A stretch of DNA of 64,000 bases from Candidatus Nomurabacteria bacterium GW2011_GWE2_34_25. GTDB lineage: Bacteria > Patescibacteriota > Minisyncoccia > Phycocordibacterales > UBA9973. Shown piece after piece: positions 33,608-63,354 of the stretch. The notes under the pieces were generated by a model that saw nothing but the letters and a program-made list of their open reading frames with translations, did no database searches and was not told the DNA's origin. The stretch's first letter is position 1. The number at the start of each line of letters is the position of its first letter. The position numbers and the translations under genes are program-made. The DNA is taken from assembly GCA_000990325.1 (NCBI GenBank), contig LBPS01000002.1:9562-73561 (forward strand). The letters are read 5' to 3'.

Positions 33608-33671
33608 TTTTAGGAATGATGTATGAGGCCTTGCCTCACACATCATCATAAAAACATATTTAATAGTTGCG

Positions 33672-33688
33672 CACAGGTCAGACCTGTG
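33672..33688. repeat. REP-like palindrome CACAGGTC-A-GACCTGTG (copy 1, upstream of transposase)
   Basis: Perfect palindrome read from sequence. Confidence 0.8.
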
Positions 33689-33720
33689 ACATATCTATTT
33701 AATATGATAATATAATAGAT

Positions 33721-34401
33721 ATGGCTATTCGAGATAAAAATTTAGTTCCAGAAGAATATTATCATTTGTATAATCGTGGAAATGATAAAAAGAAAATTTT
33801 TTTAGACGAAGAAGATTATGATCGTTTTGTAAAGCTATTATACATATGTAACTCCAAAAAAGAATTCAAATTTAAATATTCTGTAATACGAAGTAAAATA
33901 GATGCTTTTGATTTCGAAAGAGGAGAACCCCTAGTTTCTGTTCTTTCTTGGGTTTTAATGCCGAACCATTTTCACATAATTTTAATTTGTCACAGGTCCG
34001 ACCTGTGTACCGAGAAGTATAATCCTATTACAGAATTCATGAGAAAGGTTTCTACTGCATATGTAATGTATTTTAATAAAAAGTATGAAAGAACAGGAGG
34101 ATTGTTTGAGGGTAGGTTTAAATCAAGACACATAGGAGAAGAAAATTATTTTAATTATATTTTTTCTTATGTACACTTAAACCCTATAAAGTTAATTCAG
34201 AAAGATTGGAAAGAGAAAGGGATTTTTGACAAGAATAAAGCTAAAGATTTTCTAGAAAATTATAAATATTCTAGTTTTCAGGATTATTTTGGTAAAAAGA
34301 GGAAAGAAGAGGGAATAATAGATAAAAAGTCTATTCCTGAGTATTGCCTTTGTAATCATGCAAAAGACCTATTTGTGTGGATTAATAAAGGTGCATATTA
34401 G
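33721..34401 (+). CDS. IS200/IS605-family HUH (Y1) transposase, REP-associated tyrosine transposase (RAYT)-like
   Basis: HUH motif MPNHFHIIL and catalytic Tyr region YVHLNP; flanked by REP palindromes. An in-frame REP copy encodes ICHRSDLC right after the HUH motif. Confidence 0.7.
   Translation: MAIRDKNLVPEEYYHLYNRGNDKKKIFLDEEDYDRFVKLLYICNSKKEFKFKYSVIRSKIDAFDFERGEPLVSVLSWVLMPNHFHIILICHRSDLCTEKYNPITEFMRKVSTAYVMYFNKKYERTGGLFEGRFKSRHIGEENYFNYIFSYVHLNPIKLIQKDWKEKGIFDKNKAKDFLENYKYSSFQDYFGKKRKEEGIIDKKSIPEYCLCNHAKDLFVWINKGAY
33991..34007. repeat. REP-like palindrome CACAGGTC-C-GACCTGTG (copy 2, inside the transposase ORF, in frame)
   Basis: Perfect palindrome within coding sequence. Confidence 0.8.
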
Positions 34402-34405
34402 TTGT

Positions 34406-34422
34406 CACAGGTCGGACCTGTG
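34406..34422. repeat. REP-like palindrome CACAGGTC-G-GACCTGTG (copy 3, 5 nt after the transposase stop)
   Basis: Perfect palindrome. Confidence 0.8.
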
Positions 34423-34493
34423 AATGCTTCTAGACATATTGTGAATATTTTATACAGGCCATCACTAATATTATTTAGTGAAAATTTTAGTAT

Positions 34494-35090
34494 ATGATAC
34501 AATATACTTATATGAAAATAGGAATAACTCTTACATCTTCACTCTCGGTCGGGCAAGAATATATTAATCTTACTCGTACTGTTGCCGAGATTCTTGCTCG
34601 CGAAGGATTTAGTATTGTGTATGGAGGTACTGAATATGGAATGATGGCCGAGCTTGCAAAAAGTTACAAAGAAGCCGGTGGCACTGAATTGATTGGTGTT
34701 ATGTCTGAAGAATTAAAAAGTGTAACAAAAGGATATAAGGCATTTGAAAATCTTGATAAAACTATTTGGACAAATCAAATGGGTGAACGTATCCGTACAA
34801 TTAGTGATATTTCTGATGGATTTGTGATTCTTCCAGGAGGGTATGGGACTCTCGAAGAGATAATGAGTATCGTAGGAGGAAAAGCTAATAAAATTTATGA
34901 CAAACCTATTATTGTATTAAATCATAGTCATTATTACGATACTCTACTTTCATTTTTTGATGAAATGCAAAAAAAGCAATTTAGTAAGATTAAAATACAA
35001 GAATTAGTCCATGTATGTGAAAATCCAGATGATATAGTAAATTACTTTAAATCTTATTCTCAAACTATTTTGCCTGATAAGTTTGTGTAG
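34494..35090 (+). CDS. LOG-family protein (cytokinin riboside 5'-monophosphate phosphoribohydrolase-like Rossmann protein)
   Basis: PGGYGTLEE and GxGxxG-type motifs of LOG/TIGR00730 family. Confidence 0.75.
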   Translation: MIQYTYMKIGITLTSSLSVGQEYINLTRTVAEILAREGFSIVYGGTEYGMMAELAKSYKEAGGTELIGVMSEELKSVTKGYKAFENLDKTIWTNQMGERIRTISDISDGFVILPGGYGTLEEIMSIVGGKANKIYDKPIIVLNHSHYYDTLLSFFDEMQKKQFSKIKIQELVHVCENPDDIVNYFKSYSQTILPDKFV

Positions 35091-35212
35091 ATCTCTGAAC
35101 ATTCTCTTAATTTCGGAGTTATTTAATATAAAAAACCAAAGAAACACAAAAAACCATGAAAATTTCGTAAATTTCATACATACAATTTCATACATACAAC
35201 TAAAATCTGCTC

Positions 35213-35241
35213 TTGACAATAGTGACCACAAGGAATAATCT
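35213..35241 (+). promoter_or_regulatory. Sigma70-like promoter TTGACA-N17-TAATCT upstream of 35298 gene, preceded by direct repeat TTCATACATACAA x2
   Basis: Consensus -35 with 17-nt spacer to a -10-like hexamer; about 55 nt upstream of the ATG. Confidence 0.4.
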
Positions 35242-35297
35242 TAAAGAAAACAATTTTTAACTAAAAATCAATTTTTTAACTCTTTAAATTTATAGCC

Positions 35298-35867
35298 ATG
35301 AAAAAAATTATTGCATTAATTGTTATTTTTTGTGCTTTCAATGTAGCACGAGTAGAGGCGCAGATTGATTCAAAACCAGTTGCAGAATTTGAATTTACTG
35401 TTCCCACTTCTTACGATCACGATAATCAAATTGACGTATCGGTGAAGAGAGCAAAGCTAGATAAGCTTTATTCATCTGTTGAAAATTTAACAAGTGAAAA
35501 TTTTGCTAAAGTTACTAATAAATTAGTCTCTGGGAAAACTTACATTGTTAAAATTTTCGAAATGAATCCTGAAGGAGCAACAAGTCAAGAATGTTTGGCT
35601 TTTTTAAAAAATCAAGATGTCATTTTGGTTGGAGCTCAAGGTTTAACTCTCGTGTATGATCTAATGAAAGAAAAATTACCGAAAGATAAAGTAATTTTTT
35701 CTTTTGATAAAAAAGAAAATCTATGGACTTCTTCTGATGGGAATCACGGAATTCCTTTTCTAAGGACATACACAAAAGAAGAAGGTGATTATGCTTTTGG
35801 TGTAAACACTTTTGAGTATGACTTTGTTGGCAATAATGGTTGCCTGATGGCTTTCTTTGAAAAGTAA
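35298..35867 (+). CDS. Secreted hypothetical protein (signal peptide MKKIIALIVIFCAFNVARVEA)
   Basis: 189 aa with classic signal peptide. Confidence 0.5.
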   Translation: MKKIIALIVIFCAFNVARVEAQIDSKPVAEFEFTVPTSYDHDNQIDVSVKRAKLDKLYSSVENLTSENFAKVTNKLVSGKTYIVKIFEMNPEGATSQECLAFLKNQDVILVGAQGLTLVYDLMKEKLPKDKVIFSFDKKENLWTSSDGNHGIPFLRTYTKEEGDYAFGVNTFEYDFVGNNGCLMAFFEK

Positions 35868-35962
35868 CATTTTTAATTAGTTGAATTATAAATTTGAGCG
35901 AGGATTTTATCCCCGCTCATTTTTAATTTCTGAAAAATCGGACATTTTGGTATGATAGGAGA

Positions 35963-40156: not shown

Positions 40157-40172
40157 TTTCTAGTGGTCAGTA

Positions 40173-40205
40173 AAAGCCCAGCCGACTTTGTCGGCTGGGC
40201 TTTTG
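40173..40205 (+). terminator. Rho-independent terminator (GCCCAGCCGAC-ttt-GTCGGCTGGGC + TTTT)
   Basis: 11-bp GC stem followed by T-run. Confidence 0.75.
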
Positions 40206-42427: not shown

Positions 42428-42446
42428 AGCAAGGACTGTCCTTGCT
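42428..42446. repeat. Palindromic repeat family B copy (AGCAAGGA-ctg-TCCTTGCT)
   Basis: Same palindrome core recurs at 43717-43739 and, degenerate, at 46626-46648. Confidence 0.7.
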
Positions 42447-43716: not shown

Positions 43717-43739
43717 ATAGCAAGGATGGTCCTTGCTAT
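43717..43739. repeat. Palindromic repeat family B copy (ATAGCAAGGA-tgg-TCCTTGCTAT)
   Basis: 10-bp perfect palindrome arms. Confidence 0.7.
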
Positions 43740-48537: not shown

Positions 48538-48572
48538 GACAGGGAGAAAACGTTAGTTTTCTCCCTGTTGTT
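48538..48572. terminator. Bidirectional terminator (ACAGGGAGAAAAC-gtta-GTTTTCTCCCTGT)
   Basis: 13-bp perfect stem between convergent genes. Confidence 0.7.
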
Positions 48573-60266: not shown

Positions 60267-60277
60267 TAAATAAACAA

Positions 60278-60305
60278 AATAAGGCCGTAAAACGGCCTTA
60301 TTTTC
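60278..60305 (+). terminator. Terminator (ATAAGGCCGT-aaa-ACGGCCTTAT + TTTT)
   Basis: Perfect stem followed by T-run. Confidence 0.75.
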
Positions 60306-63295: not shown

Positions 63296-63354
63296 CCATA
63301 GGTCGGACCTAGGGACACAATTTTTTAAAGAAAGACCCTAGGTCCGACCTATGG
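63296..63354. repeat. Inverted pair of REP-like palindromes (CCATAGGTCGGACCTAGGG ... CCCTAGGTCCGACCTATGG, 19-nt arms, 21-nt spacer); core AGGTC-N-GACCT shared with the RAYT-flanking REPs
   Basis: The two arms are exact reverse complements; each is also internally palindromic. Confidence 0.75.

Follow-up and report, generated by a model that had tools for sequence, protein, structure and literature searches.

Matching hairpins before, within and after a RAYT-like HUH/Y1 gene in a Patescibacteria genome

Why does the gene of a putative hairpin-processing enzyme carry, inside its own reading frame, the same palindrome that brackets it? The gene lies in a 64 kb stretch of DNA, which is called the window below. 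A sequence-only reading had described it as a RAYT-like HUH transposase with three REP palindromes, and had offered two origins for the in-frame copy, i.e., a tolerated self-targeting insertion or a pseudogenising event. The features of the locus are as follows.

33614..33650, no strand assigned: separate REP-like hairpin of another type, ATGATGT-A-TGAGG-CCTTG-CCTCA-C-ACATCAT, located after the aspartokinase stop and ahead of the cassette
33672..33688, no strand assigned: upstream hairpin, CACAGGTC-A-GACCTGTG, overlapping the -35 position of the gene's promoter-like site
33686..33713, + strand: promoter-like site, GTGACA, 16-nt spacer, TG-n-TAATAT (a consensus match only)
33721..34401, + strand: RAYT-like HUH/Y1 gene, 226 aa, intact ORF
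33991..34007, + strand: internal in-frame hairpin, CACAGGTC-C-GACCTGTG, encoding H91 R S D L C96
34405..34423, no strand assigned: downstream hairpin, T-CACAGGTC-G-GACCTGTG-A, 3-4 nt past the stop codon

The 226-aa protein has the HUH motif HFHIIL at residues 83-88 (NHFH at 82-85; HUH codons at 33967-33975) and the Y-x-x-x-N-P motif YVHLNP at residues 150-155 (34168-34185), and H83, H85, Y150, H152, L153 and N154 are invariant among 30 homologues with 61-88% identity. The W-motif position reads F-E (LFEGRF), and a 70-aa C-terminal tail carries an invariant SSF. The protein belongs to a very large family that is specific to Patescibacteria, with 6132 homologues found. Its matches to NCBIfam NF047646 REP_Tyr_transpos (E 2e-12, 47.2 bits vs. 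a cut-off of 80) and to Pfam PF01797 Y1_Tnp (17.6 bits vs. a cut-off of 23) lie below both curated cut-offs; it is a divergent relative rather than an equivalog. A profile search of PDB sequences with the family alignment gave no meaningful match. Using the AF2 model (pLDDT 77, pTM 0.81), the best Foldseek match in the PDB is 4er8_A (E 3.8e-6, target TM 0.64), the E. coli REP-associated tyrosine transposase with bound REP hairpin, followed by the TnpA proteins of IS608 and ISDra2. The invariant motifs and this fold agree with the earlier assignment to the RAYT/IS200 type, whereas the intact ORF, the invariant catalytic residues and the 6132 homologues contradict the proposal of a pseudogenising event. 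By analogy with these relatives, the ORF probably encodes an intact ssDNA nuclease/ligase of the HUH/Y1 class, nearest to RAYT/TnpA-REP, the activity being a prediction. In the model, HRSDLC lies in a low-confidence surface loop (91-101) between the HUH strand (83-90) and the helix 102-121.

The palindrome CACAGGTCNGACCTGTG occurs in exactly three exact copies in the 64 kb window, at 33672-33688, 33991-34007 and 34406-34422. Hairpin matches with up to three mismatches number five, against 0.04 expected by chance from shuffles; a related doublet of AGGTCNGACCT palindromes (63297-63313 and 63337-63353), confirmed here, is the only addition to the three. As ssDNA, each copy folds into a stem of 7-8 bp with a 3-nt loop (-6.3 to -7.3 kcal/mol). 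The end of the upstream copy is 32 nt from the ATG (33 nt had first been reported), and the downstream copy begins 4 nt past the stop codon (not 5 nt), or 3 nt if it is extended to TCACAGG..CCTGTGA. The internal copy keeps the frame and is translated past the HUH motif, as had been claimed: its codons CAC AGG TCC GAC CTG TG(T) read H91-R-S-D-L-C96, five residues past the second HUH His. The gene is thus bracketed by its own hairpin, and the description of the arrangement as REPtron-like holds. The palindrome is a real nucleic-acid element and not the by-product of a conserved peptide, but it does not qualify as a REP in the strict sense: the three copies are preceded by GTTGCG, ATTTGT and AGTTGT and have no GT[AG]G foot, and the window shows no high-copy population beyond these copies and the related doublet. 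Across the family, the stem foot reads T(T)CCC...GGGA(A) or is variable. The separate hairpin at 33614..33650 (-11 kcal/mol, z -5.1) has a core of the GGCCTTGCC/GGCAAGGCC type, which flanks paralogous genes elsewhere (compare loci L060 and L036).

From the promoter-like site, transcription is predicted to begin near the A of the ATG, so that the mRNA would be leaderless. Among 73 family genes, 62 have a -10-like box, which in 41 cases precedes the ATG by exactly 6 nt; a Shine-Dalgarno-like motif is present in only 2. The upstream hairpin of homologous loci mostly stops 5-22 nt short of the -10 box, and the downstream hairpin overlaps the stop codon or lies within ~30 nt of it. No intrinsic-terminator-like site was found at the locus, and an Rfam search of the region returned no matching family.

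The arrangement was surveyed in 74 homologous genes of other Patescibacteria, in 80 GTDB loci. A perfect internal palindrome follows the HUH motif in 35 of the 74 genes, ~265-290 nt into the gene and with a stem of 8-15 bp, and the same inner stem is found again upstream of the ATG, at a distance of 15-60 nt, and at or shortly past the stop codon. Counted over genes with a perfect internal palindrome, both flanks match in 27/37 and at least one flank in 35/37. Both the hairpin and the encoded peptide vary widely between genomes, whereas within a genome the internal copy almost always equals the flanks of that gene; for example, the internal palindromes CCCTAGGTCNGACCTAGGG, GCCGGTAACCCGGTTACCGGC and GCGGAAGCAAGGCTTCCGC encode PRSDLG, PAGNPVTG and AEARLPQ, respectively. 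HRSDL-like residues come with palindromic DNA, and distant homologues have other residues with other palindromes, which is the opposite of a native peptide whose palindrome is accidental. In 20/32 cases the upstream and internal copies have opposite orientations, and the two flanks are mostly inverted with respect to each other. The internal stem is often longer than the upstream one (13-15 bp in L013, L020 and L029). Extra copies are rare, with ~10 within +/-10 kb of the 35 homologous genes (roughly 0.5 Mb). The three-copy arrangement is common to a deep clade; the internal copy did not arise recently in this gene. The perfect internal palindrome persists in 35 genes across ~50% protein divergence, as would also be expected of a functional internal copy.

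The reading towards which we lean, with restrained confidence, is that of a REPtron-like cassette in which the internal hairpin is a tolerated cognate copy that is kept matched to the flanks. One hairpin would sit at the -35 position of a leaderless promoter, a second in the loop after the HUH motif and a third against the stop codon, all of them cognate to the enzyme. The enzyme would bind these hairpins in single-stranded DNA and cut and rejoin the DNA beside them, like E. coli TnpA-REP and IS608 TnpA; we infer this binding and cleavage from relatives of only ~10% sequence identity. Recognised copies would be repeatedly replaced by the currently active variant, or be forced to match the specificity of the enzyme, and either process would leave the three copies identical within a genome while they diverge between genomes. 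The internal copy may then be an ancient one whose palindrome is actively maintained in a permissive surface loop, although the protein has no need of it.

That the protein can do without the internal copy is indicated by two sets of genes. The first is a sister clade of 30 genes (class B) with a 13-aa loop that is 7 aa shorter, in which the internal copy is absent and the matching flanks are kept. The second comprises at least seven lineages in which the internal copy is degenerate and the flanks are perfect (L002, L004, L017, L018, L060, L072 and L087); in L002, the hairpin decayed largely via synonymous changes and RSDL was kept. Compared with the canonical RAYT model, genes with the longer loop (class A) have the canonical length and class B is ~8 residues shorter, which is why we no longer regard the palindrome as inserted with respect to RAYTs at large. 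The word insertion would apply only relative to the sister clade with its 7-aa shorter loop, and the NJ, midpoint-rooted tree is compatible with either a gain or a loss of the ~21-nt unit. Of the earlier proposal of a tolerated self-targeting insertion, the tolerance in an intact gene fits the preferred reading, whereas the event is not recent and is an insertion only in this restricted sense.

The hairpin is not confined to such genes. At least 120 metagenome stretches contain the exact palindrome, only 15 of them together with a homologue of the gene, and the palindromes far from the gene often have extended stems or form doublets. Among low-GC sites, 38/82 lie inside ORFs of at least 120 aa, with Pfam-confirmed hosts that include a class-I aminoacyl-tRNA synthetase, topoisomerase I, enolase, a Mur ligase, SecA and MnmA. 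In enolase, linkers of 21-31 aa (usually 16-18 aa) contain in-frame hairpins of differing sequence at one site. In-frame persistence inside genes thus appears to be a general habit of this hairpin family in compact genomes, suggesting that short hairpins survive there by lying in frame in loops of essential proteins, like the Rickettsia palindromic elements.

An alternative is that the internal hairpin is a functional third operator: a dimeric enzyme would bind the hairpin or palindrome both at its -35 region and in its coding strand, thereby restraining its own production or sensing the presence of its gene, and selection for this circuit would hold the three copies identical. Such a role would fit the place of the upstream copy at the would-be -35 element, before a conserved leaderless promoter, and the internal palindrome, which is perfect in 35 genes over ~50% protein divergence and often longer than the upstream copy; the inversion of the upstream copy relative to the internal one in 20/32 cases suggests a preferred geometry. 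However, the 30-gene sister clade lacks the internal copy and keeps the flanks, the internal copy has decayed in at least seven lineages with the gene and the flanking hairpins intact, and similar in-frame hairpins, perfectly paired and co-varying, occur in enolase, SecA, topoisomerase I and further genes, where no such circuit is expected. We therefore consider a third operator possible but unlikely. A bolder form appears rather improbable to us, i.e., a selected self-referential circuit in which a site in the enzyme's own coding strand, together with the site at -35, limits or switches production, with a loop peptide that possibly recognises its own hairpin and with translated hairpins in Patescibacteria. 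If the extreme form of this circuit were true, the specificity of the enzyme and its target would be the same DNA stretch and would have to change together. If the broader form were true, Patescibacteria would have an undescribed system of translated, RPE-like REP-like hairpins in essential genes, driven by the present enzyme family.

The genomic setting bears on whether the cassette moves by itself. The location of the cassette differs among close relatives: the nearest homologues (83-88% identity) adjoin trmD or precede rpoB, and the window neighbours asd, aspartokinase, LOG, hyp189 and prfB showed no shared synteny across the 80 homologous loci. In relatives whose aspartokinase is 70-84% identical, aspartokinase is followed directly by prfB, whereas the window has 2.3 kb more there. 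This extra 2.3 kb also includes LOG and a hypothetical gene, so the cassette's own boundaries cannot be defined from these relatives. An empty site was also sought, and the window has no trmD/rpsP/rpoB region to set against the context of the nearest homologues. Several genomes (DATKGV01, CAZXCD01 and JBBTYD01) have two or three paralogues, which are divergent within one genome (~50-68% identical to the query), each with its own hairpin.

These observations could be taken to mean that the cassette is an autonomous IS200-like insertion sequence, with the flanks as transposon ends and the internal copy as an alternative end or a relic, rather than a domesticated RAYT that serves a dispersed REP population. 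The differing chromosomal sites in close relatives, the 2.3-kb lineage-specific segment, the scarcity of extra hairpins within +/-10 kb of the genes and the two or three paralogues in several genomes are all consistent with an insertion sequence. The paralogues, however, are divergent and have their own hairpins, whereas active insertion sequences are expected as identical copies. In addition, the tyrosine motif is the Y-x-x-x-N-P of the RAYT class rather than Y-x-x-x-Q, the flanks are usually inverted whereas IS200/IS605 ends share one strand, and the palindrome is frequent at sites distant from these genes, often in doublets. An autonomous insertion sequence is, in our judgement, quite unlikely.

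The codons and base pairs of the hairpin show on which molecule the constraint acts. Inside the hairpin, GAC encodes Asp in 15/16 cases, compared with 15% in the remainder of these genes; the corresponding figures are 6/6 against 20% for AAG as the Lys codon and 9/10 against 19% for AGG as the Arg codon. Across 38 internal hairpins, double-sided changes were found at all 10 stem pairs (103 cells), a number reached by 0/500 shuffles, and G-T pairs are essentially absent at stem positions 3-9. The codon choice and the strict Watson-Crick covariation show that it is DNA pairing, rather than the peptide, that is constrained. The upstream copy, which the predicted transcript does not include, has the same sequence as the transcribed copies.

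The same data bear on the proposal that the hairpins act as RNA, with the internal and stop-codon copies tuning mRNA stability or stalling ribosomes, as Liang, Rudd and Deutscher reportedly described in 2015 for REPs near stop codons in E. coli. The internal and downstream copies do lie within the predicted transcript, and in most loci the downstream copy is at or a few nt from the stop codon. We rank this proposal as very improbable because pairing is strictly Watson-Crick (one or two G-U in 380 cells) and an identical upstream copy lies outside the predicted leaderless transcript; in addition, copies occur in both orientations and Rfam has no matching family. Finally, we dismiss the proposals that the palindrome is a coincidence of a conserved HRSDL peptide or a disabling insertion in a decaying gene: although R92 and L95 do not vary among the 30 nearest homologues, S93 and D94 hardly do, and L002 keeps RSDL despite its decayed hairpin, rare GC-rich codons stand exactly where pairing needs them, unrelated palindromes encode unrelated peptides at the same site in distant homologues, an identical palindrome flanks the gene, and the ORF is uninterrupted, retains every catalytic residue and has thousands of full-length homologues.

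We also considered, and rejected, that the inverted upstream and internal copies form a site-specific inversion switch; the gene is collinear in all of the 80 or more loci, which is a weak test. We know of no Y1 enzyme that inverts DNA.

With the REPtron-like cassette and its tolerated internal copy as the preferred reading, the family offers material for a more general problem. REP/RAYT systems are widespread, yet how the enzymes recognise and move their hairpins and co-evolve with them is poorly understood. The family supplies dozens of natural enzyme/hairpin pairs with a graded series of compensated changes, i.e., a data set for decoding recognition, and the three copies in and around each gene identify its cognate hairpin without ambiguity. 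Synonymous recoding could remove the internal hairpin and leave the protein untouched, which would be a clean experiment. The locus also extends the REPtron idea to Patescibacteria, and a literature search found no report of REPtrons or RPE-like elements in this group.

We compare the cassette with several known systems. The E. coli REPtron (TnpA-REP, RAYT, YafM; Nunvar 2010, Ton-Hoang 2012, Messing 2012, PDB 4ER8) likewise has an HUH/Y1 enzyme with Y-x-x-x-N-P, and its gene is also bracketed by cognate REP/BIME, with an own hairpin family per gene. The E. coli elements, however, have a GTAG foot, imperfect stems and no internal copy, whereas the hairpins here have no foot and perfect stems; the two proteins share ~10% sequence identity, and the high-copy dispersed REPs of the E. 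coli type contrast with three copies and one related doublet in the 64 kb window. The IS200/IS605 TnpA proteins (IS608, ISDra2) share the fold and recognise gene-end hairpins on single-stranded DNA. They are ~150 aa long with Y-x-x-x-Q, their ends lie on one strand and they occur in many identical copies per genome, whereas the protein here has 226 aa with a C-terminal tail and Y-x-x-x-N-P, and its flanks are mostly inverted and its paralogues divergent.

In-frame palindromes are known from the Rickettsia RPE (Ogata 2000, as cited in PMC3733652), which lie in functional and often essential genes. RPE and intragenic REP (Di Nocera 2013) are described as translated in loops or linkers, like the hairpins in enolase, SecA and topoisomerase I here. 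The RPE measure 100-150 bp, whereas the units here are ~17-31 bp and their hosts are Patescibacteria.

By motif comparison only, the best-fitting set is that of subclass 2.1 / Bertels group 1 / TIRYT (Di Nocera 2013, PMC3733652; Quentin 2018), for which Table 1 of Quentin gives NH[YF]H, an FQ-like motif, Y[IV]HLNP, SS in the C-terminal tail and a median of 238 aa. Subclass 2.1 reportedly lacks REP-like hairpins and is in some cases flanked by long terminal inverted repeats, whereas short matching hairpins are present at every gene examined here.

The closest precedent for the internal copy is subclass 2.4 of the tnpA-REP genes, in which Quentin, Siguier, Chandler and Fichant 2018 (BMC Genomics 19:475, PMC6006769) described in-frame internal REPs and termed them 'unique' to that subclass. 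There, the loop that receives the REP is peripheral and variable and lies between beta3 and alphaC, and both this position and its interpretation match the present case. We note several differences. First, the motifs of subclass 2.4 are NH[IFV]H / WQ / YIxNNP without a C-terminal tail domain, whereas the motifs here are NHFH / FE / Y[IV]HLNP with an SS motif in the tail, so that, by motif comparison only, just the HuH fits. Second, the hosts of subclass 2.4 are Cyanobacteria, Bacteroidetes and others, whereas here they are Patescibacteria. Third, the REPs of subclass 2.4 are long and GT[AG]G-tagged or 'double-foot', whereas those here are short perfect palindromes without GT[AG]G. Locus-by-locus co-variation of the internal and flanking copies is not reported in the accessible part of PMC6006769. 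An in-frame REP inside tnpA-REP genes is therefore already known (Quentin 2018), and the present case is a variant of it in Patescibacteria.

Exact matches in the window confirm a gene with three copies of the palindrome CACAGGTCNGACCTGTG, one of them in frame:

33721..34401, + strand: RAYT-like HUH/Y1 gene, 226 aa, with NHFH at residues 82-85 and YVHLNP at residues 150-155
33672-33688: upstream copy of CACAGGTCNGACCTGTG, exact match
33991-34007, + reading frame: internal in-frame copy of CACAGGTCNGACCTGTG, exact match
34406-34422: downstream copy of CACAGGTCNGACCTGTG, exact match

The 64 kb window holds no further exact copy, and allowing up to three mismatches adds only two sites, at 63297 and 63337 (0.04 matches in shuffles). 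The sequence-only reading had the three copies right, whereas their distances are 32 nt before the ATG (33 had been claimed) and 4 nt after the stop (5 claimed). The internal copy is translated as HRSDLC (H91 to C96), with the third position of the Ser codon as the central base of the palindrome. As single-stranded DNA, each copy folds into a 7-8 bp stem with a 3-nt loop (−6.3 to −7.3 kcal/mol).

A protein named 'Transposase' from Candidatus Nomurabacteria bacterium GW2011_GWF2_35_66 shares its whole sequence with the window protein (100% identity), and homologues in the protein collection number 6132. The window protein matches the profiles NCBIfam REP_Tyr_transpos (E 2e-12) and Pfam Y1_Tnp, under the curated cut-off in both. 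Both His residues, the Tyr and the H/L/N of the tyrosine motif are invariant in 30 homologues with 61-88% identity. In an AlphaFold model (pTM 0.81), the HUH strand (83-90) is followed by a low-confidence loop (91-101) and a helix (102-121); among solved structures, this model is closest to 4er8_A, in which a REP hairpin is bound by the E. coli REP-associated tyrosine transposase, and next to IS608 TnpA and ISDra2 TnpA. Based on the invariant motifs, the profile matches below cut-offs and the fold match, the gene is predicted to encode an intact, conserved but divergent HUH/Y1 enzyme of RAYT type, which bears out the identity first proposed from motifs. With the reading frame intact and the catalytic residues invariant, the pseudogenising event suggested earlier finds no support.

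Eighty homologous loci were drawn from GTDB genomes, Patescibacteria MAGs without exception; their DNA was read and 74 genes were scored. A perfect palindrome (stem 8-15 bp, loop 1-5) lies directly after the HUH motif, ~265-290 nt into the gene, in 35 of the 74, and a degenerate one in nine more long-loop genes; the other 30, called class B, have a 13-aa loop, seven residues shorter, from which the palindrome is absent. By a rough estimate, chance would place a perfect 8-bp palindrome in the same 60-nt stretch in well under 1% of genes. The recurrence at the same place speaks against a one-off insertion in the window gene. The HRSDL residues are conserved among the closest homologues, which alone is compatible with a native peptide, the alternative that homologues carrying these residues without palindromic DNA had been expected to reveal. 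However, the palindrome varies between loci (CCCTAGGTCNGACCTAGGG, CCATAGGTC.., CCACCAGTCGGACTGGTGG, GCCGGTAACCCGGTTACCGGC, GCGGAAGCAAGGCTTCCGC, CCCCTATCCCCGGGATAGGGG), as do its peptide (PRSDLG, HRSDLW, HQSDWW, PAGNPVTG, AEARLPQ, PIPGIG) and its reading frame.

Locus by locus, the inner stem of the internal copy is found again 15-60 nt ahead of the ATG and a third time at the stop or immediately behind it. Matching flanks are found on both sides in 27 of 37 genes and on at least one side in 35. The core reading of a REPtron-like gene with an in-frame internal hairpin was right and the finding is real. The asymmetric centre gives the orientation of the flanking copies relative to the internal one: 20 upstream copies are inverted and 8 direct, and of the downstream copies 14 are direct and 13 inverted. 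The pattern is confirmed in L081 and L087, whose genes are closely related to that of the window: CACAGGTC occurs four times in L081, and L087 has a perfect GCCTAGGTC.. upstream with one mismatch in its internal copy (CAT/His, left arm), an intermediate state. The fourth copy of L081 (L081:7211) lies behind the next gene, a 148-aa ORF without Pfam match, which is thereby hairpin-bracketed too. In the homologue P0027, the reading frame runs on into the downstream hairpin and ends in ...FHRSDL, the peptide of the internal copy. Comparison of the loci indicates that the three-copy arrangement is ancient, conserved and co-evolving.

Genes with the [RK]SDL peptide are AT-rich and elsewhere avoid the codons that pairing requires, yet use them within the hairpin: GAC for Asp in 15/16 (15% elsewhere in the same genes), AAG for Lys in 6/6 (20%) and AGG for Arg in 9/10 (19%). 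Centre alignment of 38 internal hairpins gave two-sided changes at all ten stem pairs (103 cells), matched by no shuffle and lost on sliding the partner column; the set was chosen for palindromes, which partly builds in the paired percentage, but not the diversity of pair types. Stem positions 3-9 are essentially free of G-T pairs. The internal hairpin is thus constrained in its DNA pairing and not in its peptide.

A −10-like box is present in 62 of 73 genes among L001-L080. Its end is separated from the ATG by exactly 6 nt in 41 genes and by 7-9 nt in another 15, and a Shine-Dalgarno-like motif is present in just two of the 73. The whole family, including the window gene (33700-33720), thus appears to make leaderless transcripts. 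In most genes, the upstream hairpin stops 5-22 nt 5′ of the −10 box, i.e., at the −35 position; in the window, GTGACA overlaps its right arm. With a leaderless start, the upstream copy is probably outside the transcript of the gene's own promoter, though identical to the transcribed copies. This, together with the strict Watson-Crick pairing, favours a DNA-level over an RNA-level element. An Rfam search of the window region gave no family match.

Class A genes (long loop, with the internal copy or a remnant) exceed class B genes by 7-8 codons, approximately the length of the hairpin unit. In a midpoint-rooted NJ tree, class B forms one clade beside two or three class-A clades, which fits either one gain or one loss of the unit; compared with the canonical RAYT model, class A matches it in length and class B falls ~8 residues short. 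The hairpin behaves as a discrete block either way, and we weight gain and loss equally. Class-B genes, too, are flanked by matching hairpins at these two positions, so the flanking hairpins are family-wide and the internal copy is an extra of one part of the family. Seven loci (L002, L004, L017, L018, L060, L072, L087) combine a degenerate internal copy with perfect flanks and an intact reading frame, whereas an internal copy without flanks occurs in at most two (L019, with a truncated gene, and L022). These loci, and the 30 class-B genes, mark the internal copy as the most dispensable of the three.

The exact 17-mer was found in at least 120 stretches of metagenome contigs, of which, among the matches listed, only 15 contain a homologue of the window gene. 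Among these listed matches, the stem is extended by at least 3 bp at 54 of 137 distinct sites (1.6% by chance), doublets 22 or 41 nt apart occur at several sites, and in low-GC contigs 38 of 82 sites lie within ORFs of at least 120 aa. All three frames are used (HRSDL[WC], TG[LQRP]TC, QVRPV), with HRSDLW, TGLTC and QVRPV as examples in housekeeping ORFs; CACAGGTCNGACCTGTG is in frame in L113, L114, L117, L126, L132, L136, L154, L158, L166, L170, L192, L198, L205 and L206. Pfam confirms class-I aminoacyl-tRNA synthetase, topoisomerase I, enolase, Mur ligase, SecA and MnmA as hosts; those of L158 and L192, read from sequence only, are presumably a PIF1-like helicase and an indolepyruvate oxidoreductase. 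In topoisomerase I of L126, two different hairpin-derived peptides, TQVRPVS and then LPRSDLWQ, are adjacent at about residue 200, suggesting that hairpins of two types have built up there.

In enolase and MnmA, the hairpins fall in inter-domain linkers. The linker between the N- and C-domains of enolase is usually 16-18 aa among Patescibacteria homologues and 21-31 aa in many, the longer ones holding one or two in-frame hairpins at one site, with a sequence that differs by genome (ACAGAGGTCGGGCCTCTGT, ACACAGGTCTGACCTGTGT, ACCTAGGTCCGACCTCGGT):

L215:8001-9272: enolase gene, perfect 13-bp stem with ACAGAGGTCGGGCCTCTGT core
L214:257-1543, L213:1406-2680 and L117: enolase genes, perfect or decaying hairpins, usually two in tandem
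L132: enolase gene, in-frame hairpin ACACAGGTCTGACCTGTGT

In an essential enzyme, one site thus carries hairpins that recur or co-evolve. In-frame hairpins that persist and co-vary are therefore not special to the transposase-like gene, which argues for a general process that keeps family copies alike and against a function specific to that gene. A regulatory role of the internal copy, whose pairing is conserved but which 30 class-B genes do without, we regard as unlikely. Most likely, the locus is a REPtron-like cassette, in which the internal hairpin would be a cognate copy that is tolerated and stays matched to the flanks.

The neighbours of the window gene are shared by none of the 80 homologous loci, and its closest homologues (83-88% identity) sit after rpsP-KH-trmD and/or before rpoB. 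In four relatives (aspartokinase 70-84% identical), aspartokinase is directly followed by prfB with a conserved promoter region, whereas the window has an extra 2.3 kb between them (33608-35962), containing a REP-like hairpin, the cassette, a LOG-family (Lysine_decarbox/SLOG) gene and a 189-aa hypothetical protein without Pfam match; beyond this segment, the prfB promoter region ATTTTGGTATGAT is conserved. The differing neighbours and the extra segment suggest that the cassette relocates on evolutionary time scales. A transposase-like gene also lies beside or near prfB in three class-B loci (L048, L073, L080), and 1.5 kb from it in the window; this proximity may be coincidence or a preferred neighbourhood. 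The aspartokinase-prfB spacer of relatives L088 and L091 also contains hairpins. Further hairpins in the window are:

33614-33650: a second REP-like hairpin, of another kind, immediately behind the aspartokinase stop and just 5′ of the cassette, with TGAGGCCTTGCCTCA as core and an extended stem (−11 kcal/mol)
63296-63354: intergenic pair between two + strand genes, CCATAGGTCGGACCTAGGG with its exact reverse complement, 40 nt apart
136-168, 40172-40204, 42428-42446 with 43717-43739, 48539-48568 and 60276-60304: other GC-rich perfect hairpins, stems 9-15 bp, mostly intergenic

In other genomes, class-B paralogues are flanked by hairpins of the TGAGGCCTTGCCTCA core type. The pair at 63296-63354 is a REPIN-like doublet, forming a 19-bp hairpin as single-stranded DNA (−22.4 kcal/mol, z −8.5); each unit contains a single mismatch and unites two stem types, CATAGG and CCTAGG, that other family members show. 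The remaining GC-rich perfect hairpins may be terminators or other REP-like families; of such hairpins, the window has 26 with a stem of 8 bp or more, where shuffled sequence gives 0-6. The one at 136-168, CCCTAAGCAACGCTTAGGG, is similar in type to the hairpin of family member L050.

In the library searched, we found no paper joining REPs with Patescibacteria or CPR, nor the in-frame housekeeping pattern there. In-frame REPs inside tnpA-REP genes are described by Quentin et al. 2018 (PMC6006769) as unique to subclass 2.4. The motifs of the Patescibacteria family (NHFH, F-E, Y[IV]HLNP, SS tail) differ from those of subclass 2.4 and, by motif comparison only, fit subclass 2.1, for which the same paper reports that no REPs were found. 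Unlike canonical REPs, the family's hairpins are without GT[AG]G, and their hosts are Patescibacteria. The in-frame copies in housekeeping genes resemble Rickettsia palindromic elements, and PMC3733652 provides precedent for them in intragenic REPs of other genes and Rickettsia RPEs. The arrangement is a variant of a phenomenon already described, rather than a first.
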